From: Christensenella sp. UBA1242 | GTDB lineage: Bacteria; Bacillota; Clostridia; Christensenellales; UBA1242 | Reading direction: 5' to 3' | NCBI GenBank assembly: GCA_002308915.1 | Contig: DBWI01000014.1 | Location: 5,340 to 69,339, forward strand | Length of the DNA: 64,000 bases | In this document: in pieces, positions 1-34,931 of the stretch | How the letters are laid out: the number at the start of each line of letters is the position of its first letter | Position numbering within the stretch: position 1 is the stretch's first letter | Translations under genes and position numbers: made by a program | The notes under the pieces: model-generated | Databases searched by the model: none | Told to the model about the DNA's origin: nothing | Seen by the model: only the letters and a program-made list of their open reading frames with translations

Positions 1-3000
1 TCCAGTTAGTCATTTGATAACCTTTTGTGTAATAAGTGTTGTAATATGCTACTATGCTGTAATTAGGTAAAATATCTTCAAAATCGGTTCTAAATGTGTA
101 TGGTGAATTGTATGTTACTTTGTCAACGGTAATAACATAACCAGACATTGTGTAAATTACATTATATACATCATATTCCCAAACAGCATAAAGATGAATT
201 GTTGAATTTTCTGTTGTTGACAAGTCAAATACTTCTTGACCATCTTCATATATTACTGCTGTTGTTGGATAAAGTGCCCAACCAACAAAGTGCTTGTTTG
301 TAACACCAGAATATGTACACAATGGCAAATTATATCTTTCGCCACAATGTACAACAAGATTATCCATTGTTCCAGTTGCTTCAGTTGAGTTTTTCTCAAA
401 TACAACTGTATATTGATTACCTTCCCAAACTGCAAATAACCAAGCATATCCAAGATTGTCAACATAGTTAAACATCATATTTGTTTGTGATTGATTTAAA
501 ACTTGTTTGTCGGTATATGTTGGTTGTGTGGCATTTGGATCCAATGACCAACCCAAGAACTTGTAACCTTGCTTAGAGAAAGTATTTTCTGCAAGTGGTA
601 TTGAATAGTTTGTAACACTTCTTGTAACAAGTTCTGTGTATTCTATTTCATTGCTAGAGGTTTTTCCACCATTGCCTTTATAGATAATTGAGAATGTATT
701 TTTTCTCCATTGTGCATAGAAAGTTGTGTCTTTTGTTATAACAAATTGAGATTCGCCATCCCATTCTTCACCTGTTGATGCTGTCCAATTAAGGAATGTG
801 TAACCTTCAACAACTGGTTTGTTTGGTTCCAAAATCTCTTGACTCCAAACTGCATACAAAACAAGCTTTCCAACACCATCATATCCACTCTTGCTTAAAT
901 CAATAACATCATTTTCGGCATAAACTACTTCACCATTTGGTGTGAGAGCCCAACCTAACAATTGGTGTGTTAATATTCTTGATGTGTTTGTTCCTATTCC
1001 ACTTTCATTAAACACAACTTGTGATTGTTTGGTAAAGTATTTTTCATTATAACCGTATGTGTTTGAAAGACTGAAATTTGATTGATAGTCAAGTGTTGGT
1101 TTTTCTCCAACTCCACCATTTGCATCAAATGTTATTGTGTTTGGAACAAAGTATGCATAAAGCATTTGTCTGTATTGATTTGTGTTATAGAAAACAAGTG
1201 TATCATTTGTGACTTGAGTTCCCTTTCCAAAATATTCTGTAAACCAACCAACAAATTTGTAACCTTCTCTTTGAAGTTCTGGAAGTGGACGGATATCACC
1301 AAATTTTCCTGTTCCATTGTCATATCTTACAAAGAAGTCTTCTTCAACATTTTGTCCATTTTCGTCTTGATAGTTGTGATTTAATACTATTTGGAAAATA
1401 TTTGAAACCAATGTTGTTTCGTATCCACCTGTTGTGTAACGAAGAATTTGAACAATATCTGAGATGTCAATACTACCATCAAGGTTTACATCACCATAAT
1501 TGATATCAAACCATTGATTATCTTGTTGCATTCTTGCAATAAATTCTTCTCTTTCACGTGAATCTAATACTGTGTAATTTGAAAGAATAACTGCATCAAC
1601 AAGGTCAAGTACTTCATCATCATTTACATCTCCAGGCAAACGTGAAACAACAATAATTCTGCCTGCATATGCGATAAAATCTGTTTTGTTTCCTTTTTGA
1701 TCTGTAAACTTATCTTTGTTGTCTTTGTTTGTTACTTGAATATAAAAACTATCTGCTGGAATTTTAACTCTTGGCAATTGGAATGTTAATGCAAGTATTG
1801 TTCCATCTGACTTGTAATCTGTTCCACTTTGTGCAACTGACACATTAAGGTGGTCATCATATAATCTAAATGAATCAATTGAACTGCGTCCGTTCAAGAT
1901 ATTACCAAGTTTGTAGGAAACAAGCGTAAGTTGTGAATCAAAGTTTACAGTAAAGTTCGCTGCTGTTATTCCACTGTTTGCGTGCAAGTCAACAAATACT
2001 GTAACTTGTTCTGTCGCTGGTACAACATAAGCATTTTGAACAACAACTCTTGGAAGTTTTTCTATTTCTTCTCTTGAATTTACATCTAATGTTGTTGTGT
2101 ATTCACATTTAACGCAAGTGCAAACAACTTTATCGTCTATTTCACTTGTTTTATACATATGTTCTTCAACAAAACCACAATTGATACAAAAGTGACCATG
2201 AGAATCATGATAAGAAGCCAGAGTTTCTCTTGGATAATCAAAGTTGTGTGGTTTTAGTGCAGTCCTTTCACCATTCTTGACAACAAGGTCTTCTACAAGA
2301 ATTCCATCTGTTTCACTTGCTAAAACACAAATATCTCCTGTGTAACCATATTCTGAACAAGTTGCCTCTCTTTCTCCAACAATTGTTGTTGCAAATTCTT
2401 TTGCAATATATGAAATTCGTTTCTCGCCACAAATTGAACACCACTCTTCTTTGTAACCATAAACTGTAACGTATGTTCCATCATCACTAAGGTTATATTC
2501 TGTTACAACAACTTTTTGTTGGTCATATTGTTCTGCACACTTGATAACAAAATCCAATTCTTCAACAATGTTGTCATATCTAATGTAACCTTTTACTGAA
2601 CCTGTTTGTGTTGTATCTAGTTCAAATGTTGCATCTGCAAATACATTCGTTTTTGTTCCGTTGTAATACTCGCCTTCAAGGTCATTTGTTCTTAAAACAT
2701 CAAACAAAGTAACTTCTTGATTTTGCATAAATGTTTTTGTGTAATCACTTGGAACTTCTATTTTGTAAACTTTGTTTTTCTTTGCGTAATAACCATTTTC
2801 TATGGTATAAATTGTATTATTATCAACATCATAAATCTTAATGGTAATTGCTCTTAATGCATGTTCTGTTGTGCTTGTGTTCTTTGAGTCAAAACCATAA
2901 ACACCAACAACTGTGTAATTAACTTTTCTTTGGAATGTTGAACCACTTTCTGTTGTTGTAACTAATTTTACATCTAAATTATCTATTACAAAGTATCTAT

Positions 3001-5716
3001 CTCTACCATCATAAACCAAATCTTTTGAATATTCTGCAAATTCTGGATCTGTGCATTTTTCCGTACTGAATGAATATTCTAATTTCTTTTTATCGGTACG
3101 AATTTGATATGTGTTTTTGTTTGCAGCTTTAATTGAAGTCAAATCATTTTCTTTTTGATTTGGGACCCAAACGTGTGGTTTTGATTCTATATGATTATCC
3201 TTTGAACCACCGAGAGCATGTTCATTTTTATAATCATAAGTTGCAGAAATTGCTGTTACTTCTGAAAATACCTCTTTAATATTTTTAAGTGAAGTTGCAT
3301 AACCAGTAATTCCACCAGCCCAAACATTTATGTATGGATATCTGATAGATAATCCAGCATACATATAACTTTCTGCTTTAACAATTATTTGAACAGAAGC
3401 AGCAGCATAACTGTTTTTAAGCAAACCACCATTAAGTCCAACCAAACCGCCGCCATAAACACTATTTCTATTATTTGAATCTTCGTTTGCAGAATAATAT
3501 CTGATTGCGCTTCCTTTAACTGTTGTTGATTCTATTTTGCAATAAGAAACCTCGCCATAGTTTTCTCCAACAATTCCACCAACATACATAGAAATTGCTT
3601 TGTTGATTACTTCTGTGTTGGTTTCTGTTGCTTTTCTGCCTGCTTCAACAGAAGAATTGCTTACATAACAAGAAATTATTCTTCCATTGTTTACAGCAGC
3701 AATAGTTCCTGCAACAATCTTTTTGGCATCATCATTGGTCTTGTATTCATAAACAGAGATTTTGTCAAACTCCAAATATTCAACAACTCCACTTCCACCA
3801 ATAACTCCAAATATTGATGCTGTATCTTTTGATGCCACATTAATTTTTACATTTTTAATTACGTGTCCACCACCATCAAATGTTCCGTTATATTGATTTA
3901 TGTCTGAATAAAGTGGATCAAGTTTATCATTGCCAAAATCCAAATCTTTGACAAGCATATAACACTTATCATTTTTTGTCTCGTTATATATCAATTTAAA
4001 TTGTCTTGTTGTTCCAATAACATAAGGATCATCAATTGTTCCCTTACCACCCAAATATGTTGAATCGTCATATAATCTAAAATTGATGGTATAAAGAGCA
4101 ATATCACCATAAACAGGGTCTTTGTAAACAAGACTTGCTTGGAAATTATTGTAAGTTTTAATTGTGTAATATCCTTTTGTCAAGTCTTCTTCAAGATATT
4201 GTTTGTTTGAATTAACCACTTCATAAAATTCATATCTGAATAATGTTGAATCCAAACCAAATTGATTACAATATGGAACAATTAGTTGATTTAGATATAT
4301 TGTTTCACCTGACAAAACATTTCCAAATACGTTGGCATTTGTATCATTTTTTGTTACATATCTTTGTCTGCCATCTTGTTCTTTTACAAGATAAGATGAA
4401 CCAAGTCCAACAATATATTCAACATCTTTTAGCATTTGTCTGTATGCAGCTTCTTGCAAGGTATCCAAACGATTTAATGTGTTTTGAATTTCATTTATTG
4501 TTAAATAGTCGTCTTGACCTTCACCATAATAATATTTCGCTTCACATCTTGCTTGACCAGTCATGTCAGAATTTTGCAAGAATATTTGAGACATTTGATA
4601 TGAACTAATAAACCTTATAAAATTTATCATTGTCATATAGTCATAATATACTTGTGATGCAAAATCTAGTGAAACAAGAGAAGCGTTATCTGTGATGTAA
4701 CTTTGATTTGAAGAAACATAATCATAGTAATAGTGTCCAATTGATTGTCTTGTATTTGAACCAATGTAATATTCAGTGAACATATCTAGATATGAAGCAC
4801 CATTTGATCTTGCACCCATTAAAGCTTTGTAAAGATTTTTGTATGTTCTTTCAATCTCTTCATCACTTGCATTTTTTGTTACACTTGTGGCAAGATCGCC
4901 AAATGAATTACCTTTTTCAAATCCATATATATAATTTTTGAGAATATTATAACTGAAATTACCCGAAGTTGAATAAATAAAATCTGTTACTTGTGTTTTT
5001 GCATAATATGCTTCAAACGACTCATCAATCTTATTCAAAACTCTGTCAATTTCTTCTGTAAGTTTTGTAGAAAGTTCTGCAATTTGTCTTTTTACATCAT
5101 CAATTTCACGACTTATTTTATCAAATTGGTCATTAAGTCTTGCTTCCATCATTTGAAGTTCACTTTGTGAAGTTTCGCCAATATGGCACCACTTTAATAT
5201 CATATCAAAAGCACCATCAACGGCAGCACCAGCAGCCGGTGAACCAAAATATGCTGTAGCAGCAAGGGCAGCACCACTCTTAATTATATTAACACTATAT
5301 TTTAACCAATCAACTGCACCATCTTTGGTTACTGCGTCATAAATCATATCATTGAGTGATGATGCTGCTTTTACACCGTAGTTTACCATGGCAGTTTTGG
5401 TTGCATTATCATATTTACCTTTGTTTGCTGGGTTTGCAGCAGCATTTGCACCTGCATTGTTTGCATTGGCCACTTGGTTGTTTTGAGCATTAACAATTTG
5501 TTCATTGTTGTTGCCATGCCCATCATTTTCTAAAAAATCACCAATATCTATTTCGCCATCAACATCAATGTTAACTTCTCCACCATCATCAGGCGGAACA
5601 GCATATACTTGTTGTGCATTTGTTGAAAAACAATTTATTAACAAACCAAATGAACAAGCCAAAAGAGTAAATACTAATGATAAAAATATAAAACTTTTTT
5701 TATTTTTATTAATCAT
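1..5716 (-). CDS. giant secreted surface protein, truncated by the window edge (about 1905 codons visible), with cohesin-like, dockerin-like and Listeria-Bacteroides-type repeat modules
   Basis: Open minus-strand frame from ATG 5716-5714 (RBS GGAGG 5730-5726) to the window start. It is absent from the ORF track because it has no stop in the window. N-terminus MINKNKKSFIFLSLVFTLLACSF is a signal peptide. G-rich GGxVGxNxG (GLUG-like) repeats lie at ~3300-3900 and a Cys-rich segment at ~2100-2500. A cohesin-like module lies at ~1640-2080. Dockerin-type repeats GDVNDDEVLDLVDAVILSNY and GDVNLDGSIDISDIVQILRY lie at ~1430-1640. GYxFxGW repeats occupy 1-1400; the frame was checked at 1510, 1633 and 4. 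Confidence 0.8.
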   Translation of the reverse strand, partial: MINKNKKSFIFLSLVFTLLACSFGLLINCFSTNAQQVYAVPPDDGGEVNIDVDGEIDIGDFLENDGHGNNNEQIVNAQNNQVANANNAGANAAANPANKGKYDNATKTAMVNYGVKAASSLNDMIYDAVTKDGAVDWLKYSVNIIKSGAALAATAYFGSPAAGAAVDGAFDMILKWCHIGETSQSELQMMEARLNDQFDKISREIDDVKRQIAELSTKLTEEIDRVLNKIDESFEAYYAKTQVTDFIYSTSGNFSYNILKNYIYGFEKGNSFGDLATSVTKNASDEEIERTYKNLYKALMGARSNGASYLDMFTEYYIGSNTRQSIGHYYYDYVSSNQSYITDNASLVSLDFASQVYYDYMTMINFIRFISSYQMSQIFLQNSDMTGQARCEAKYYYGEGQDDYLTINEIQNTLNRLDTLQEAAYRQMLKDVEYIVGLGSSYLVKEQDGRQRYVTKNDTNANVFGNVLSGETIYLNQLIVPYCNQFGLDSTLFRYEFYEVVNSNKQYLEEDLTKGYYTIKTYNNFQASLVYKDPVYGDIALYTINFRLYDDSTYLGGKGTIDDPYVIGTTRQFKLIYNETKNDKCYMLVKDLDFGNDKLDPLYSDINQYNGTFDGGGHVIKNVKINVASKDTASIFGVIGGSGVVEYLEFDKISVYEYKTNDDAKKIVAGTIAAVNNGRIISCYVSNSSVEAGRKATETNTEVINKAISMYVGGIVGENYGEVSYCKIESTTVKGSAIRYYSANEDSNNRNSVYGGGLVGLNGGLLKNSYAAASVQIIVKAESYMYAGLSIRYPYINVWAGGITGYATSLKNIKEVFSEVTAISATYDYKNEHALGGSKDNHIESKPHVWVPNQKENDLTSIKAANKNTYQIRTDKKKLEYSFSTEKCTDPEFAEYSKDLVYDGRDRYFVIDNLDVKLVTTTESGSTFQRKVNYTVVGVYGFDSKNTSTTEHALRAITIKIYDVDNNTIYTIENGYYAKKNKVYKIEVPSDYTKTFMQNQEVTLFDVLRTNDLEGEYYNGTKTNVFADATFELDTTQTGSVKGYIRYDNIVEELDFVIKCAEQYDQQKVVVTEYNLSDDGTYVTVYGYKEEWCSICGEKRISYIAKEFATTIVGEREATCSEYGYTGDICVLASETDGILVEDLVVKNGERTALKPHNFDYPRETLASYHDSHGHFCINCGFVEEHMYKTSEIDDKVVCTCVKCEYTTTLDVNSREEIEKLPRVVVQNAYVVPATEQVTVFVDLHANSGITAANFTVNFDSQLTLVSYKLGNILNGRSSIDSFRLYDDHLNVSVAQSGTDYKSDGTILALTFQLPRVKIPADSFYIQVTNKDNKDKFTDQKGNKTDFIAYAGRIIVVSRLPGDVNDDEVLDLVDAVILSNYTVLDSREREEFIARMQQDNQWFDINYGDVNLDGSIDISDIVQILRYTTGGYETTLVSNIFQIVLNHNYQDENGQNVEEDFFVRYDNGTGKFGDIRPLPELQREGYKFVGWFTEYFGKGTQVTNDTLVFYNTNQYRQMLYAYFVPNTITFDANGGVGEKPTLDYQSNFSLSNTYGYNEKYFTKQSQVVFNESGIGTNTSRILTHQLLGWALTPNGEVVYAENDVIDLSKSGYDGVGKLVLYAVWSQEILEPNKPVVEGYTFLNWTASTGEEWDGESQFVITKDTTFYAQWRKNTFSIIYKGNGGKTSSNEIEYTELVTRSVTNYSIPLAENTFSKQGYKFLGWSLDPNATQPTYTDKQVLNQSQTNMMFNYVDNLGYAWLFAVWEGNQYTVVFEKNSTEATGTMDNLVVHCGERYNLPLCTYSGVTNKHFVGWALYPTTAVIYEDGQEVFDLSTTENSTIHLYAVWEYDVYNVIYTMSGYVITVDKVTYNSPYTFRTDFEDILPNYSIVAYYNTYYTKGYQMTNW

Positions 5717-23792: not shown

Positions 23793-25997
23793 ATGTATAA
23801 TAAATATTATTACTATTACCAACTAGATTCAAATATTGATGAAATAATTAAAAAATATTTAGAACGCAAAGCAAATAACAAAGACCTAAAGTTTGTTATT
23901 ATTGTTGCCAAGTCACAAATGATGTCTGGCGCATACAAAAAGTTATATAATGAAATAATAAAGAAATTATACCAACATATTGGACCTTATGACATTTCTG
24001 TTTCTGTTTACACAAAAGACCATTATTATTCAACAAGTGATTGGTTAAAAATTAAAGAAGCAGGAGAATTTTTTAAAAAGTATTCAATAACCTTTGGATT
24101 TGAAGATATGAACAAAACTTGGTCTGTTAAAGAAGTTGAAATCGCAAATTCAAAAATTATGAGTTCTGCAAATGAGATAAAAAAAATGGGGCTCTCACCT
24201 TTTGAGTCTTTGATGGCGGCATATCTTAAAGTTACTTCAAGAAAATATACTTCGGAAGAAGAAAATGACCATTGGTCAACATCAAGGTCTGTTTATGGAG
24301 CTCTTAATGGTGGAAAAATTGTTTGTACTGGGTACAGTCAAATTTTGAAAGCCATAATTGATGAACTGGGTGAAGAAAATATTATTATTTACACAAATCA
24401 TGTTGCTGTTTCATGGGAAAATGAACAAATTGATGGATATCATTCAAATGTTATTTTGTATATTAAAGACGAAAAATATGGTATCAATGGTTATTATTAC
24501 CTAGATCCAACTTGGGATTCTAATAGTAAAAATATATCAGAAAAAGATTTGGCACACTTTATGGTTCCACTAAAAGACATTAATAAAATTAGAGGTAATA
24601 TTATATCTGATGATCATGTCTTTCCAAATAAAGATCCTGAGGATAAAAAACCTCAAAATGGTACTAAAAAGAACACATCAAAAAGTGATGAAATATATAA
24701 TAATTTTAAAATAGTCAATGCAACTAGAAGTGTTTCATTTACAAGTGATGGATTTCAGTTGACACAAAAATTTGTTAAAGATTTGCTTAAAATTTATCCA
24801 GAATTTGAGACTTATGTGAGAGAAAAATATAGAGATGAACAAGTAAACAAAACAATTGAATTAATCAATTCAACAGAAGAACAATATAAAGATTTATTAA
24901 ACCAATACAAACAAGATATCTATTATTTTGAAAGTGTTAAAGAGTTGTTTAAAGAATATGGAATAACTTACCTGACATTAAAAGAAGAAACTGATTTGAT
25001 GTTGATTGATTTTGATTCTGATAATAATAAAAAACTAGATGAAATTATTGATTTTTTGGATAAAACAAAACAAGCTCGTGAAGAAATTATGCAAAAATAC
25101 CCAGATGCTGTTAGTAGATTTGTTGATGCTTATAAAAATTATTACAAACAAAGAATTGAAGGATTAAATAAAAACATAGAAGAACAATTAAGAAATTGTA
25201 AAGAAATTTATCAACTTAACTATAATGGTGTTTATGAAGAATCAATACAAAAAGGATATTCACCAGAACAAGCTAAAGAAATAACTGAACGAATTAACGG
25301 AAAAACTTTTGAAGAAAGTCAAGAATACCTTACTTTTATTAGCAGAAAATCAGTTGATGATGATGCAATAAAAGAATGTGAAGATATTTTAATGAACAAA
25401 ACTCCTATTATTGAACAATTTGTAAAATATCACCCAGAAAGTCATCCATCTATTCTGGCATTATCAGATGAAGAAATAAGTGATTGTATTTTCTCTATGG
25501 ATCTTAATATTAGATGGGGAACTGAAGAAAGAGAATATGCGATAACAGAAGAGGATAAAGAAATTTTTGATAAAGAAATTACAAATAGAGGGTTAAAAGT
25601 TGAAAAGTATTTTTCACAAATCGATGACCAAATCGCCTCAAAAAAAGAATTTTTAGAAAGCGTAATACAAAGTAAAAATAAATTTATTAAAAGCTATAGT
25701 GAACTTGGATATGATGAGAACCTTAATGAAGACATTGTACAATATATAATGCGTAATCAAAATTTAGTTAAAGATTTTATAAGCAAAAAGAGTACTCCTG
25801 TTTTACAAGGCGGAATAGCGAATGCACTTAAGGCTGTACTTTCAAAAAAATATAAACAACTTGGCAAAGACCATGTTTATAGATTAGTAAAAGAGATTAT
25901 GGATTATAACTTTAGACATGCACCAAAAGAATTTAAAGACGATGCATCAATTTGTTTTTGTGAAAAAGGAATGGTTGCAGAACAAGGGAAAGAATAA
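23793..25997 (+). CDS. transglutaminase-like cysteine protease-fold protein with long coiled-coil C-terminus
   Basis: AGAGG RBS then ATG 23793. Candidate Cys-His-Asp triad context GKIVCTGYSQIL ... GYHSNVILYI ... YYLDPTWDS. Confidence 0.6.
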   Translation: MYNKYYYYYQLDSNIDEIIKKYLERKANNKDLKFVIIVAKSQMMSGAYKKLYNEIIKKLYQHIGPYDISVSVYTKDHYYSTSDWLKIKEAGEFFKKYSITFGFEDMNKTWSVKEVEIANSKIMSSANEIKKMGLSPFESLMAAYLKVTSRKYTSEEENDHWSTSRSVYGALNGGKIVCTGYSQILKAIIDELGEENIIIYTNHVAVSWENEQIDGYHSNVILYIKDEKYGINGYYYLDPTWDSNSKNISEKDLAHFMVPLKDINKIRGNIISDDHVFPNKDPEDKKPQNGTKKNTSKSDEIYNNFKIVNATRSVSFTSDGFQLTQKFVKDLLKIYPEFETYVREKYRDEQVNKTIELINSTEEQYKDLLNQYKQDIYYFESVKELFKEYGITYLTLKEETDLMLIDFDSDNNKKLDEIIDFLDKTKQAREEIMQKYPDAVSRFVDAYKNYYKQRIEGLNKNIEEQLRNCKEIYQLNYNGVYEESIQKGYSPEQAKEITERINGKTFEESQEYLTFISRKSVDDDAIKECEDILMNKTPIIEQFVKYHPESHPSILALSDEEISDCIFSMDLNIRWGTEEREYAITEEDKEIFDKEITNRGLKVEKYFSQIDDQIASKKEFLESVIQSKNKFIKSYSELGYDENLNEDIVQYIMRNQNLVKDFISKKSTPVLQGGIANALKAVLSKKYKQLGKDHVYRLVKEIMDYNFRHAPKEFKDDASICFCEKGMVAEQGKE

Positions 25998-29994: not shown

Positions 29995-30071
29995 GGGGGT
30001 TTAGCTCAGCTGGCTAGAGCGCCTGCCTTGCAAGCAGGAGGTCATCGGTTCGATTCCGATAATCTCCACCA
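29995..30071 (+). tRNA. tRNA-Ala (anticodon TGC)
   Basis: GGGGGTT acceptor with a G3:U70 pair, anticodon arm CCTGC-CTTGCAA-GCAGG, T arm ATCGG-TTCGATT-CCGAT, CCA encoded. Confidence 0.9.
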
Positions 30072-30080
30072 TATAAAAAG

Positions 30081-30108
30081 TCCAAATCATAAAGATTTGG
30101 ATTTTTTT
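30081..30108 (+). terminator. rho-independent terminator after tRNA-Ala
   Basis: TCCAAATC ATAAA GATTTGGA followed by T7. Confidence 0.8.
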
Positions 30109-30299
30109 ATTTATAAAAAAAGACAAAGATATGTGATTTGGTTTTTTCAAATACCAAAGGGATTTGAAAAAGTTGTGCGAAAGCACAGATTTTTTATAAT
30201 CTCACACCAAAGGTAAAAATTAATATATCTGTACTAAATTTCAGGATTTATTTGACAGTATGTTTGCTGTACAATTAAAATATACATAGGAGAAAGTTT

Positions 30300-30436
30300 A
30301 TGATTGGTGCTATTGTTGCAATGGAAAAAAGAAGCTAAATATTTTATTGAAAAAAATGGAAAATGTTAAATCGTACACTGATTCAGGAAAGAAAGTTTAT
30401 CAAGATAAAATAAAACAGATTAATTTGGAGTGATTT
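30300..30436 (+). pseudogene. decayed 5' fragment of an MTA/SAH nucleosidase (mtnN/pfs-like) gene
   Basis: Promoter TTGACA 30252 / TAAAAT and RBS AGGAGA precede ATG 30300. MIGAIVAMEK stops after 12 codons. Shifting frame at two poly-A runs restores ...EAKYFIEK / MENVKSYTDSGKKVYQDKIKQINLE, resembling the IGIIGAMEEE...G N-terminus of Pfs. The rest of the gene is missing. Confidence 0.35.
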
Positions 30437-31033
30437 ATGCAGATTGTTAAAGATGTTGTTATGTATCAAGCAACTACTAGAGATTATAAAGTTGGAGATA
30501 TAATTAAGTTTGGTGATGATTATAATTATCAAGCAAAGCGAGTTCTTGATGTTGATTATAAAATGGAAAACGCACCAAATAACATGCCAGAAATGTTATT
30601 AGAAGAAAAGATAAAACATCACAAAAAATTAAACAAAAATGAACTTAGAGAAGTTTGTGATATCCTTTGGAATTATGGTTTTTCTATGAGAGAAATTGGC
30701 TTGGAAATATGTAGACAAAGATATTATCCAAATGAACCATCAAGATTTAAGTGTATGTTTTTATGTAAAAAACCAGAAGAAGCAAAGTGCTATTTATCTA
30801 CTGCCAAAACAAAAGGAAACACTTCTCAACCAAAAGTGATTGGAGTTAAACTTAATGGAAAAATACTTATGACCAGTAATTCATTTAATATGAGGGGTGG
30901 CAAAAGTATAAATGAATTTATTGAACAAGCACATGCTTATTGGCAAGGAGTTGATGATAGTTTTGTGGACAAAGCAAGTATTGAATATTTGTTTGAAGGT
31001 ATTGCAGAAGTTGTGGAAATAATTAATGAATAA
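30437..31033 (+). CDS. hypothetical protein (198 aa)
   Basis: ATG 30437 behind GGAG. No confident family assignment. Confidence 0.6.
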   Translation: MQIVKDVVMYQATTRDYKVGDIIKFGDDYNYQAKRVLDVDYKMENAPNNMPEMLLEEKIKHHKKLNKNELREVCDILWNYGFSMREIGLEICRQRYYPNEPSRFKCMFLCKKPEEAKCYLSTAKTKGNTSQPKVIGVKLNGKILMTSNSFNMRGGKSINEFIEQAHAYWQGVDDSFVDKASIEYLFEGIAEVVEIINE

Positions 31034-31053
31034 TTTTCAATAACAAAAAACCA

Positions 31054-31082
31054 TTGACAATATTTTTGTTGTAGGTTAAAAT
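31054..31082 (+). promoter_or_regulatory. hisS promoter
   Basis: TTGACA 31054-31059, 17-nt spacer, TAAAAT 31077-31082. Confidence 0.6.
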
Positions 31083-31091
31083 AATGTCGTT

Positions 31092-31127
31092 ATGAAAAAG
31101 ATATTCAATTTACATCATCACGCTTAA
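31092..31127 (+). CDS. candidate leader peptide MKKIFNLHHHA (three consecutive His codons)
   Basis: ATG AAA AAG ATA TTC AAT TTA CAT CAT CAC GCT TAA. It starts ~3 nt after the predicted TSS (near-leaderless, no SD) and is followed by overlapping alternative hairpins and a terminator upstream of hisS. Confidence 0.35.
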   Translation: MKKIFNLHHHA

Positions 31128-31184
31128 TTTGTGTTGCAAAACTGCAGCACCATTTTGTCGTGGTGTGTTATTAAAAGAAATGAC

Positions 31185-31210
31185 GCACCGAAAATAGTCG
31201 GTGCTTTTTT
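31185..31210 (+). terminator. leader (attenuator) terminator upstream of hisS
   Basis: GCACCGA(31185-31191) AAATAG TCGGTGC(31198-31204) followed by T6, 68 nt before the hisS ATG. Confidence 0.75.
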
Positions 31211-31278
31211 ATTAAAGTACGATAAATGTGTTTTGAAAATAAAACACAAAATGATAAAGTAGTAATAAGGAGAAATTT

Positions 31279-32592
31279 ATGATTGAGCCAAGAACATTAC
31301 CAGGGTTTATGGAATTATTACCTGGTGACCAAATACTTTTTAATAAAATTAAAGATACAATAAGAAAAAATTATGAAAGATATGGTTTTTTGCCACTTGA
31401 TACTCCTGTTTTGGAAAGTAGTGAAGTTTTGCTTGCAAAAGCTGGTGGTGAAACAGAAAAACAAATATATCAATTTAAAAAAGGCGATTCAGATTTGTGT
31501 ATGCGCTTTGACTTAACTGTTCCGCTTGCTAAATATGTTGCAGAAAATTTCAATGAACTTTCCTTCCCTTTTGCAAGATATCAAATTGACAAGGTATATC
31601 GTGGAGAAAGACCACAAAAAGGAAGATTTAGAGAATTTTATCAATGCGATATTGATGTTATTGGTAGAGACAGTTTGAGTTTGTATTATGACGCAGAAAT
31701 TCCTAGTATTATGTACAATGTGTTCAAAGAACTTAATATTGGAGATTTTACAATTTTTGTAAGCAACAGAAAAATATTGTTGGGACTAATTGAAGAGCTT
31801 GAGTTGAAAGATATTGCCACAGATATTTTTAGGCTTATTGACAAGATTGAAAAAATTGGCGAGAATAATTTTGTTTTGGCACTTAAAGATGATTACAAAG
31901 TTGACGAACAAAAAATCCAAAAACTTTTGGAGTTTGTAAAAATTAAAGGTTCAGTTGATGAACAGATTGGATTATTAAAAAATATGCCAATACAAAACGC
32001 AAACTTTAGAGCTGGTATTGATGAATTGGAAGTTGTTACCAAATACATGAAAACATTTGGAGTTACAGAAGAAAATTTTGAAATTAACCTTTCTATTGCT
32101 CGTGGTCTTGATTATTACACTGGCACAGTTTATGAAACATTTATTAAAGGAAAAGAAAATATTGGTAGTATTTGCAGTGGTGGAAGATTTGATAACCTTG
32201 CAGGATTTTATACAAAAGAACATTTGCCAGGAGTTGGAATGTCTATTGGATTAACAAGATTATTCTATCAACTTAAAGAAAATAATATACTTGCCAATGA
32301 AAGTCAATCTGTTGCAAAGGTTGTAATACTGCCAATGAGTGATGAATGTATTGAAAAAAGTATTGAACTTAGCAACAAATTAAGAGAGAATGAAATTAAC
32401 ACAACAATATATTTGGAAAACACAAAATTTAAGACAAAACTTGCATTTGCAGTAAAATCTAATGCAAACTATGCAATCTTTATGGGCGAAGATGAAATTA
32501 AAAACAGTGTTTATACAATCAAAGATTTGATTAAGCAAGAACAACAAACAGTTACACTTGATGAACTTTTAACTATTTTGAAAGAAAAATAA
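31279..32592 (+). CDS. hisS: histidyl-tRNA synthetase
   Basis: Class II motifs: [29 protein letters not shown]-type motif 2 (here [27 protein letters not shown]), GGRFDNL motif 3 region and a C-terminal anticodon-binding domain. RBS AAGGAGA. Confidence 0.95.
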   Translation: [437 protein letters not shown]

Positions 32593-32658
32593 AAAATACT
32601 GGACATTTTGAACATATCGTGTTAGTATAATATCCGTATGCGCTAATGCGATATATAT

Positions 32659-32736
32659 GGTGGGTATAGCGCAGTTGGTTAACGTGCCAGATTGTGACTC
32701 TGGAGACCATGGGTTCGAGTCCCATTACTCACCCCA
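32659..32736 (+). tRNA. tRNA-His (anticodon GTG) with encoded G-1
   Basis: G-1 then GTGGGTA acceptor pairing with TACTCAC, C73 discriminator, anticodon arm CCAGA-TTGTGAC-TCTGG, T arm ATGGG-TTCGAGT-CCCAT, CCA encoded. Confidence 0.9.
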
Positions 32737-32742
32737 TAAAAA

Positions 32743-32768
32743 AGAACACTCTTTTTTGAGAGTGTTCT
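32743..32768. terminator. bidirectional terminator (tRNA-His / tsaD)
   Basis: AGAACACTCT(32743-32752) / AGAGTGTTCT(32759-32768) with T-runs on both strands. Confidence 0.8.
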
Positions 32769-32769
32769 T

Positions 32770-33819
32770 TTATTTTAGTGGTACTGTTGATTTTGCTGTG
32801 AGATTGAGTTCTGCAAAAGGATTGTCATCTTCCATAAGTTGATAATATGCATATGAACCAATCATTGCTGCATTGTCGGTGCAAAGTTTTAGACTTGGTG
32901 AATATAATTCAATGCCATTATTTTTGCATTCTTGTTCTAATACTTCTTTGAGTTTACTATTTGCTCCAACACCACCTGCAACAACAAGTTTGTTTTGTTT
33001 TAATTCTTTTAGTGCGTGTAAAGTTTTTTGAGATAGTTCATCAACAACTGCTTTTTGGAAACTTGCAGCAATATCTGCTTTGTTAAGTTCTTCACCTTTT
33101 TGTTCTTTGTTGTGAACATAGTTTATTACTGCTGTTTTTATTCCACTAAAACTAAAATTATATGTTCCACCCATAATATTTTTGTGAGTGAAAGAGATAT
33201 TGTCTTGACCTTCTTTTGCAAGTTTGTCTATTTTTGGGCCACCTGGGTAACCAAGGCCAATTACTCTTGCAACTTTATCAAATGCTTCGCCAACTGCGTC
33301 GTCTACCGTTGTCCCAAGTAATTCCATTTGAGTGTAATTTGGTATATTGAGTAGTGCTGTGTGTCCACCACTAACCAAAAGACAAACAAATGGCGGTTTC
33401 AGGTCGCCGTGTGTTAAATAGTTTGCTGCAATATGTCCACGAATATGGCTAACAGGTATTAGTGGTTTGTTTTGCATATATGCAAGACCTTTTGCAAAAC
33501 TAACTCCCACCAAAAGTGCACCCAAAAGTCCGGCTCCATATGTTACTGCAATTGCATCAATATCTTCCATGGTTAAGTTGGCTTCTTTTAGTGCTTCGTT
33601 GCAAACATTTGAAATTGCTGTTATGTGGTTTCGTGATGCAACTTCGGGAACAACCCCACCAAAACGAGTGTGGATTTCTATTTGTGTTGCAATAATATTA
33701 CTCAAAATTGTTCTACCATTTTCGACAATTGCAACGCTTGTTTCGTCACAGCTTGATTCTATTGCAAGAATACGAATGTTTTCTTTTTTTCTTAATTTTT
33801 CTAATAATTCTTTTTCCAT
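32770..33819 (-). CDS. tsaD: tRNA N6-adenosine threonylcarbamoyltransferase
   Basis: [17 protein letters not shown]-terminus, HIRGHI metal site, [14 protein letters not shown]-fold length of 349 aa. Confidence 0.9.
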
Positions 33820-33829
33820 TTTTTCACCA

Positions 33830-34931
33830 TTAGTTACTTTTTACAAGATAGTCGTTTATAAAAGGTTGAATATTGCCATTCATAACTCCATCAACATCAG
33901 AAGTTTCATAGCCTGTTCTGTGGTCTTTGACCATTGTGTATGGACAAAATACATAACTGCGTATTTGACTGCCCCACTCAATCTTTTTGATTTCACCTTT
34001 TATGTCGTTCATTTTTTTGAGTTCGTCTTCTTCTTGTTTTTCAACAAGTTTACTGTATAACATTTTCATTGCTGTTTCACGGTTTTGGATTTGGCTTCGT
34101 TCTGTTTGGCAGCTTACAATAAATCCTGTTGGAATATGCGTTATTCTTATGGCACTTTCTGTTTTGTTTACATGCTGTCCACCTGCTCCACTTGAACGAT
34201 ATGTGTCAATCTTTAAGTCTTCTGGACGAATTTCTATATCTGGCAAACTTTCAATTTCTGGCATAACTTCAACACTTGCAAAACTTGTGTGTCGTCTGGC
34301 ATTTGAATCAAATGGAGAAATTCTAACCAATCTGTGAACACCTTTTTCGCATTTAAGGTATCCATAGGCATCATCGCCACTAACCAAGAATGAAATACTT
34401 TTTATACCTGCTTCATCACCAGGAAGTTCATCTAGAACTTTTACCTTGTAATTTCTTTTTTCACAGTACATTTGATACATTCTAAAAAGCATTTCTGTCC
34501 AATCTTGTGCTTCTGTTCCACCTGCACCAGAGTGTAAAGTGAGAATTGCATTGTTTGAATCATATTTGCCTTTGAGTAGTGTTTCTATTCTAAAGTCTTC
34601 TAATTCTTCTTCTAGTTCTTGAAGTTTTTGCTCTATTGTTTGCTCAATTTCTTCATCATGACCAAGTTCCAAAAGTTCCAATGCAACATTGATATCATCA
34701 ATTAAGTTTTCACATTTTTTGACACGGTCTAGTTTGTATTCAATATTTTTTATTTTTTGGCCAACAACTTTTGTTTTTTCAATGTCATTAAAAAAGTCTG
34801 GCTTTTGTTGTTCATTTTTTAATTCTTGCAAGTTTGACTGTAGTTTTGGTAAGTCAAAGACACTCCTTTATAATTTTAAGAGTGTTTATGTGTTTTTCTA
34901 AATTTTCCTTTACGCTTTCAATAATTATCAT
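33830..34931 (-). CDS. prfB: peptide chain release factor 2, requires programmed +1 frameshift
   Basis: Frame 0 is ATG 34931 [25 protein letters not shown] then TGA. The +1 frame continues [20 protein letters not shown]... into the 333-aa track ORF. SPF tripeptide and [11 protein letters not shown] motif are present. Confidence 0.9.
34853..34868 (-). promoter_or_regulatory. RF2 autoregulatory frameshift site
   Basis: On the minus strand: AAGGAGTG TCTTTGAC, an internal SD-like AGGAG 3 nt before the slippery CTT TGA C. Confidence 0.9.

Follow-up and report, generated by a model that had tools for sequence, protein, structure and literature searches.

The hisS leader and its elements

We analysed a 64,000-nt stretch of DNA, hereafter the window, from Christensenella sp. 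UBA1242 (GCA_002308915.1, contig DBWI01000014.1, positions 5,340-69,339 of the forward strand), and in particular the leader of its histidyl-tRNA synthetase (HisRS) gene, hisS. The gene lies on the forward strand at 31279-32592, encodes 437 amino acids and is preceded by a Shine-Dalgarno (SD) sequence, AAGGAG, at 31267-72. The product is a genuine HisRS, as it scores 397.8 bits against the TIGR00442 equivalog model (cutoff 286.75), contains the Pfam domains tRNA-synt_His and HGTP_anticodon, and falls below the cutoff of the HisZ model. The leader is the 225-nt stretch between a DUF2441 gene (30437-31033) and hisS. An original prediction, made from the letters of the window, had read it as a possible ribosome-mediated attenuator instead of a T-box. 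Our analysis indicates that the leader is quite probably a transcription attenuator of the trp/his/pheST type, in which a translating ribosome would tune hisS to the supply of charged tRNA-His.

All elements of the leader lie on the forward strand. Promoter P1 (31054-31082) matches the consensus at 11 of 12 positions, with a -35 element TTGACA (31054-59), a 17-nt spacer and a -10 element TAAAAT (31077-82), as originally described. The mini open reading frame (mini-ORF) MKKIFNLHHHA-stop is likewise where it had been placed, at 31092-31127, with its 11 codons running from the ATG at 31092 to the TAA at 31125-27 and the His codons CAT CAT CAC at 31113-31121. The P0 hairpin, earlier called H0 (GUGUUGCA-AAAC-UGCAGCAC, 31131-31150, then CAUUUUG; -10.7 kcal/mol), starts 3 nt past the mini-ORF stop, and its arms, 31131-38 and 31143-50, are one base pair longer than first drawn. 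P0 was scored as terminator-like in the terminator scan, and it may act as a pause hairpin for RNA polymerase.

The strand at 31157-31172, segment 2, is the hub of the leader and has three alternative partners: segment 1 (31116-31123, comprising His codons 2 and 3 and the Ala codon), the 3' arm of P0, and segment 3, the 5' arm of the terminator. Pairing with segment 1 forms helix P1 (CAUCACGC at 31116-23 with GUCGUGGUG at 31157-65), which encloses P0 and is part of the minimum-free-energy fold, at -19.1 kcal/mol for P0 and P1 combined. The original set of helices was incomplete in that this strongest helix, joining the His codons to GUGGUG within 31157-31165, had been overlooked. Segment 1 is the strand beneath a ribosome stalled at the His codons and, in the modelled folds, helix P1 is a textbook anti-antiterminator; His codon 1 is unpaired in the window fold. 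Pairing of segment 2 with the 3' arm of P0 gives helix H1 (31147-52/31161-66, -6.8 kcal/mol), present as described. The third pairing, the antiterminator (UGGUGUGUUAUU / AAUGACGCACCG, 31161-31190), extends the earlier helix H2, which was real and had been understated: it is a continuous 12-bp helix (31161-72/31179-90) of -14.8 kcal/mol. Because it engages 6 of the 7 5'-arm bases of the intrinsic terminator (GCACCGA-AAAUAG-UCGGUGC plus U6, 31185-31210), the two are mutually exclusive, at -14.8 versus -11.0 kcal/mol. The terminator matches its first description, with helix H3 at 31185-91/31198-204 and the U tract at 31205-10.

The leader folds far better than shuffled sequence (z = -4.5), and none of 200 shuffles folds equally well. 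When the intervening sequence was shuffled 2000 times, no shuffle equalled the complementarity of segment 2 to both the His-codon region and the terminator 5' arm. Free leader RNA is predicted to form P1, P0 and the terminator together (-33.2 kcal/mol). A covariance model of P1 and P0 found the hisS leader as its sole site in the window, at 82.7 bits versus 23.8 for the next match. The bare motif CAYCAYCAY is common, with 16 occurrences in the window when both strands are counted, so the signal lies in context and conservation. Six of the 16 runs cluster within 4.7 kb at 874-5581 on the forward strand. Another mini-ORF with a CAYCAYCAY run lies at 25365 on the minus strand; it is antisense to a 736-amino-acid gene and was rejected as a chance occurrence.

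Conservation of the leader in related loci

We compared 174 related loci (L001-L174), of which 80 came from genomes, 80 from metagenomes and 14, closer relatives, from an exact-protein look-up. They come from uncultured Clostridia, many of them under the label Christensenellales or 'Clostridium sp. CAG', and the nearest HisRS is 81% identical to that of the window. The metagenome search with HisRS contributed two His-run leaders (L088 and L115); none of its matches exceeded 61% identity or came from a close relative of the lineage of the window. Runs of at least three His codons occur upstream of hisS at ~6 times the background rate of the same loci, and ~14 distinct hisS leaders from uncultured Clostridia have a mini-ORF with three consecutive His codons (five in one of them) followed by a terminator. 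When the 174 loci were cross-tabulated, a mini-ORF with at least three His codons was accompanied by a terminator in 15 and stood without one in a single locus (L061, where it lies inside a coding region). Among the 158 loci with no such mini-ORF, 19 had a terminator and 139 had neither element. One of these 19, L088, carries an HHH ORF that the scan overlooked, making the true split 16 and 18. The HHH matches in L061 and L145 were both rejected as lying inside coding regions; every other such run belongs to a mini-ORF with a terminator after it.

The window belongs to a subfamily, type A, shared with L161, L162, L002, L166/167, L168/169/172 and L005. The leader peptides are MKKITNIHHHR in L161 (HisRS 80% identical to that of the window), MKKIAFLHHHKN in L162 (76%), MIKFISIHHHS in L166/167 (74%), MIKYISIHHHS and MSKFISIHHHS in L168 and L169/172, respectively (73%), MKIKSLLHHHSI in L002 (67%) and MIKMSLRHHHR in L005 (59%). 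In the eight type-A relatives, HHH is preceded by exactly 7 codons and followed by 1-2, with the P0 hairpin 2-4 nt past the stop, and the ORF shows no indel and no stop despite nucleotide divergence. Across 27 type-A His codons the CA is invariant and the third base is T or C. Non-synonymous changes that would be neutral for pairing (C to U at position 1, A to G at position 2) are found in none of the 27, and synonymous ones do occur.

At the level of structure, the RNAalifold consensus of eight leaders consists of P1 and P0. P0 is kept in all type-A leaders, with pairs changed on both sides in L162 and L005. The H0/H1/H2/H3 scheme recurs in all eight type-A relatives, where the analogue of H1 ranges from -7.9 to -11.7 kcal/mol, and helices equivalent to the antiterminator are present in relatives. 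Hairpins kept in orthologous leaders that had lost the mini-ORF would have spoken against the original prediction; orthologous leaders with the hairpins also keep the mini-ORF and its HHH. MAFFT alignment of whole leaders aligned the ORF and P0 well and left the 3' half out of structural register, and the helices were instead extracted sequence by sequence.

Beyond type A, longer SD-led mini-ORFs with His runs precede hisS in L019/L088, L039/L059, L076 and L115 (five His in L115). Of these six type-B leaders, 5 share the dual complementarity of segment 2, to the His region and to the terminator arm. The five His codons of the L049 leader ORF are dispersed.

Several loci show partial versions of the leader. 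L165, which like L161 has a HisRS 80% identical to that of the window, was compared with L161 1330-1500; at ~1040-1097 it lacks the mini-ORF and most hairpins, and TTGACA is fused to the terminator tail. This pattern suggests that the attenuator was naturally deleted or that the assemblies differ. In L072, compared with L115, the ORF is similarly missing and the terminator remains. L163 (74%, ~1270-1300) has no mini-ORF and keeps a terminator, AUGCACCGAAUCGGUGCAUUUUUU, much like that of the window; this terminator lies directly after the upstream gene and is followed by a promoter. The element in L163 may be a decayed attenuator.

Start signals and a candidate second promoter

In L161, L162, L166 and L005 the mini-ORF ATG lies 6 nt after the -10 element of a promoter with a perfect TTGACA -35, and in L002 it lies 7 nt after it; the five related leaders share the perfect -35 and a 17-18 nt spacer. 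This distance places the A of the ATG at the usual transcription start, and the predicted mRNAs are therefore leaderless. In L168/169/172, where the homologue of the L166 leader follows dnaN, the ATG is instead preceded by AAGGAG at a distance of 9 nt. That one leader can apparently be served by either start signal is good indirect evidence that the mini-ORF is translated.

A candidate second promoter, P2, lies between the terminator and hisS at 31233-31260 on the forward strand (TTGAAA, 16 nt, TG-n-TAAAGT; 9 of 12 consensus positions plus the TG), with 18 nt between the end of its -10 element and the hisS ATG. An AU-rich hairpin, GUGUUUU-GAAAAU-AAAACAC (31228-31247), overlaps the site. Sites at the P2 position are stronger in L166 and L168/169/172 (11 of 12), and another is present in L005; the promoter scan from terminator to hisS found no P2 in L161, L162 or L002. 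Across the region, promoter-like sites are as numerous as expected by chance. The terminator ends 17 nt (L161) and 31 nt (L002) before the hisS ATG with no promoter-like site between, so that hisS in these two loci must rely on read-through. The relatives L001, L164, L173 and L174, in which hisS has no such leader, use a promoter at the P2 position. We read P2 as a putative older constitutive hisS promoter, upstream of which the attenuator module would have been added in some lineages.

Ribosome masking and the proposed mechanism

The effect of a stalled ribosome was modelled by making a 28-nt footprint unpairable, with the A site on each His codon or on the stop codon. Whichever His codon occupied the A site, the window leader was predicted to switch from P1, P0 and terminator to P0 and antiterminator, and the terminator was gone. 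The identical flip was obtained for L162, L002, L168, L172, L005, L039 and L059. A mask on the stop codon restored the terminator via H1 in L162, L002, L005, L039 and L059. The geometry of the window leader points the same way: with His3 in the A site the front edge of the ribosome would reach ~31131, the first base of P0, and with the stop codon in the A site it would reach ~31137-40 and open the 5' arm of P0. These edges fit the stall/stop logic of the original prediction.

In the proposed mechanism, transcripts from promoter P1 would start at, or 3 nt before, the AUG of the 11-codon ORF. Where the ORF is not translated, or once the ribosome has gone, segment 1 would pair with segment 2 around P0, allowing the terminator to form and transcription to stop at 31205-10; the modelled helix P1 would thus give termination by default. 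A ribosome that reaches the stop codon would melt the 5' arm of P0 with its front edge, the freed 3' arm would capture segment 2 in H1, and the terminator would form again. A ribosome stalled on CAU-CAU-CAC while awaiting His-tRNA would both cover segment 1 and leave P0 closed, and it is the only state expected to do both. Segment 2, freed by the stall, would then pair with the terminator 5' arm to give the 12-bp antiterminator, and RNA polymerase would enter hisS. His-dependent read-through is thus the predicted response, and the probable second promoter just upstream of hisS would supply basal expression.

Several observations weigh against this mechanism. The caveats attached to the original prediction, few His codons and a nearly leaderless mini-ORF that has no SD, both hold in the window. 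The regulatory codons number only three, and the ATG, with no SD, lies 9 nt rather than 6-7 nt after the -10 element, which from the predicted start at ~G31089 leaves a probable 5' untranslated leader of 3 nt. A 3-nt leader should lower initiation. The promoter-like site between terminator and hisS in the window, L166, L168 and L005 could mean that leader and gene are separate units, or would blunt regulation, and the regulatory range in the window may be modest given P2. Covariation is weak, with 3 of 13 pairs changed on both sides among eight sequences, several of them close kin. The close relatives L001, L164, L173 and L174 have no leader at all before hisS, so the element is dispensable.

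The masking results are also not uniform. The stop-codon mask leaves the antiterminator in place in the window and L168, and the His and stop states are inseparable there. L161 forms the antiterminator even as free RNA, and L166 and L169 retain the terminator under the mask. Among type-B leaders, L019 and L088 (in full-length folds) and L115 retain the terminator in every state, and in L076 the free and His-masked folds are the same, a short terminator hairpin appearing only with the ribosome at the stop codon. The energy model supports the architecture and, because thermodynamic masking is ambiguous in several leaders, it implies that discrimination between His and stop states must be kinetic. 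Collectively, the original reading of the leader as an attenuator was supported by every computational test run, with helix P1 added, P2 taken into account and the wording on the T-box adjusted.

Alternative explanations

We weighed this attenuator against four other explanations of the leader. T-boxes are the usual control of synthetase genes in Firmicutes, and a degenerate T-box or other direct tRNA-binding riboswitch would have uncharged tRNA-His pair with a CAU/CAC specifier and steady the antiterminator with no translation involved. His codons beside a terminator and antiterminator upstream of an aminoacyl-tRNA synthetase gene are the classic T-box setting, segment 2 contains UGGU, and a T-box core motif is found upstream of hisS in L133 and L138. 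These two distant relatives are, however, the only ones among the 174 loci, and the original premise that hisS is normally T-box-controlled fails in this HisRS clade. At gathering score the Rfam scan of the window returned tRNAs only, with no T-box and no His_leader, in agreement with the earlier failure to find a T-box consensus. At E<=10 on 30950-31350 there was no match to RF00230 or RF00514, only chance-level snoRNA and small RNA (sRNA) matches, and a scan of 40 related loci gave no T-box upstream of hisS; no T-box model match covers the leader. The core motif is absent from the leader and, as the window tRNA-His ends C73-CCA, a T-box bulge would need UGGG; the UGGU of the leader sits within a helix strand and not in a bulge. 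The ~20 nt before the His codons leave no space for a Stem I, and a T-box would not explain the fixed 7-codon frame, the stop codon or the start signals. We regard this explanation as very improbable. The phrase 'instead of a T-box' is itself only loosely apt, because most relatives have neither element. An equally remote explanation is a chance arrangement of AT-rich intergenic DNA with the upstream gene's terminator. The 16 CAYCAYCAY runs and the chance frequency of promoter-like hexamers would be in keeping with it, but the fold z-score, the dual complementarity, the specificity of the P1 and P0 covariance model and the recurrence of the architecture in ~14 distinct leaders are not, and the comparative data effectively refute it.

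Two further explanations are unlikely and merit somewhat more weight. The leader could be an independent short transcription unit, in which a small ORF or sRNA has a promoter of its own and is efficiently terminated, with hisS transcribed from P2 only and the His codons non-regulatory. The P2-like sites in the window, L166, L168/169/172 and L005, and the promoter at the equivalent place in relatives that have no leader, are what such a unit would predict. It is at odds with L161, L162 and L002, which have no P2, and with L161 above all, where the U-tract ends 17 nt before the hisS ATG. It would also leave a conserved antiterminator that overlaps the terminator purposeless, and would require cognate codon and cognate synthetase to coincide by chance in ~14 leaders. 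The module always lies upstream of hisS or of a hisS-linked ArgE/DapE-like gene. Alternatively, an RNA switch that does not involve the ribosome, worked by a HutP-like protein, HisRS itself or a small ligand, could have kept CAUCAUCAC only as a pairing strand. The His codons do lie in P1, and C/U wobble changes keep their pairing with G, so conservation could be partly structural. Yet His codon 1 is conserved while unpaired in the window, and pairing alone would not account for the absence of pairing-neutral non-synonymous changes from the 27 His codons, for an ATG exactly 7 codons upstream or for the swap between leaderless and SD starts in a homologous leader. The loops of P0 and the antiterminator are unconserved, with no apparent ligand or protein site and no Rfam match. 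A HutP-type or HisRS-mimic operator was rejected, as the alignment contains no conserved loop or repeated triplet motif.

T-box leaders were seen ~80-100 nt downstream of hisS in four Tissierellia-like loci (L015, L017, L020 and L090), where hisS itself has a plain promoter only. These T-boxes presumably control the next gene; aspS is the usual neighbour after hisS in such loci.

Deacylase genes behind His-codon leaders

The P1 and P0 covariance model pointed to leaders otherwise missed among the loci, in L008, L070 and L001. The leaders of L008 (MTNLFVTLHHHS) and L070 (MKQLFVTLHHHS) have SD sequences and precede an ArgE/DapE-family deacylase gene with hisS directly after it. In L001, hisS itself lacks a leader, and 1.7 kb upstream of it a leaderless MSKNINKVHHCK leader precedes the same type of deacylase gene. 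The enzymes are M20-family deacylases (L070 1858-2958, L008 1896-2981 and L001 1336-2445) that score below every equivalog cutoff. A hisS-linked deacylase is also found in L173, L174 and L022, and no homologue was found in the 64-kb window. The position of the gene directly behind a His-codon leader and terminator in L070, L008 and L001 hints at a role in histidine supply, for instance as a hydrolase of N-acyl-histidine or His peptides.

Genes and features around hisS

A tRNA-His(GTG) gene follows hisS at 32660-32736 on the forward strand and is itself followed by a strong terminator at 32740-32771. The order hisS, tRNA-His is kept in 15 relatives (L001, L002, L003, L008, L022, L083, L089, L161-L166, L173 and L174); the spacing between the two genes is 40-70 nt in most close relatives and ~720 nt in L003. 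In the window, no terminator was found between hisS and tRNA-His and, for this reason, the tRNA may be partly co-transcribed, and thus co-regulated, with hisS. A promoter-like site of its own lies before tRNA-His at 32600-32628.

Upstream of the hisS leader, a tRNA-Ala(TGC) gene is present in the window (29995-31033 region), L161 and L165, with the DUF2441 gene between in the window; in L161 the tRNA gene is closely preceded by a phage-type integrase. The region between tRNA-Ala and the hisS leader may be an insertion hot spot. L170 (~880-1350) and L171 have a long argS-hisS intergenic region with three tandem ~150-bp units, each ending ...AAAATTTAACATCACATAG. The release factor 2 (RF2) ORF, prfB, at 33830-34831 on the minus strand, has a TTG start and apparently lacks ~25-30 N-terminal residues, as would follow from a programmed +1 frameshift site of the usual kind immediately upstream.

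Relation to known systems and significance

The mechanism and the target family are already on record as predictions. His leader peptides have been predicted to precede hisZ and a paralogue of hisS in bacilli (Naville & Gautheret 2010, PMC2965389), and His attenuators before his operons of the B. cereus group, Peptostreptococcaceae/Lutispora and Erysipelotrichales (Ashniev et al. 2022, PMC9413887); the latter report gives no RF00514 match in Firmicutes and does not mention hisS. Judged from its description, those leaders resemble the ones described here in their short ORF, 3-5 consecutive His codons, adjoining alternative antiterminator and terminator hairpins and low-GC Gram-positive hosts, and one published target (PMC2965389) is a hisS-family gene. 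The present leaders differ in that the target is a full HisRS with an anticodon-binding domain, linked to tRNA-His, in uncultured Clostridia (Christensenellales-like metagenome-assembled genomes), and in that transcription of several is predicted to start at the ATG itself, which makes them leaderless.

The E. coli and Salmonella hisL leader (RF00514) shares tandem His codons, pairings of the 1:2, 2:3 and 3:4 type, a terminator and a possible pause hairpin with the window leader. It has seven His codons, whereas the window leader, which gives no RF00514 match, has three in an 11-codon, nearly leaderless ORF, adds a nested hairpin, P0, whose 3' arm supplies a second anti-antiterminator (H1), and serves a synthetase rather than a biosynthetic operon. 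In E. coli, pheST is an aminoacyl-tRNA synthetase operon controlled by a leader-peptide attenuator (pheM) rich in the cognate codon. The arrangement of a synthetase gene under a cognate-codon leader peptide is the same; amino acid, phylum and sequence are different, and pheM has a normal ribosome-binding site. The T-box (RF00230) occupies the same regulatory niche with the same output, terminator read-through at low charged tRNA, but senses tRNA by direct RNA-RNA contacts, and its defining motifs are absent from this hisS leader. Leaderless polycysteine short ORFs in mycobacteria (attributed to Canestrari et al. 2020) reportedly act as attenuators mainly of downstream translation and operon expression, not through a canonical intrinsic terminator. 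They too are leaderless short ORFs with tandem cognate codons as an amino-acid sensor, and differ in belonging to Actinobacteria and in using Cys codons.

What is new here is the lineage, the full, tRNA-His-linked hisS as target, the leaderless start with its fixed spacing, the P0/H1 layer and the link to an ArgE/DapE-like deacylase. No new principle is revealed, and the find is a solid but fairly ordinary one. The natural variants, leaderless or SD-led, with or without a downstream promoter, and including natural deletions of the leader, offer experimental material. The constant geometry of 7 codons, HHH, 1-2 codons, stop, 2-4 nt and hairpin is suited to testing how ribosome position sets the choice of RNA fold. 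The deacylase link provides a lead for annotating this ArgE/DapE-like enzyme.

On a wider reading, to which we give even odds, the leaders would form an undescribed, patchily distributed family of His attenuators in uncultured gut Clostridia, marked by a leaderless 7-codon run-up to HHH and placed upstream of an older constitutive promoter. The module would also have been recruited to the deacylase, giving a small His-tRNA-responsive regulon of hisS, possibly tRNA-His, and the deacylase in the place usually held by a T-box. The hisS leader adds a well-documented and comparatively supported case of leader-peptide attenuation to the Clostridia, in which synthetase genes are usually assumed to be T-box-controlled or unregulated.

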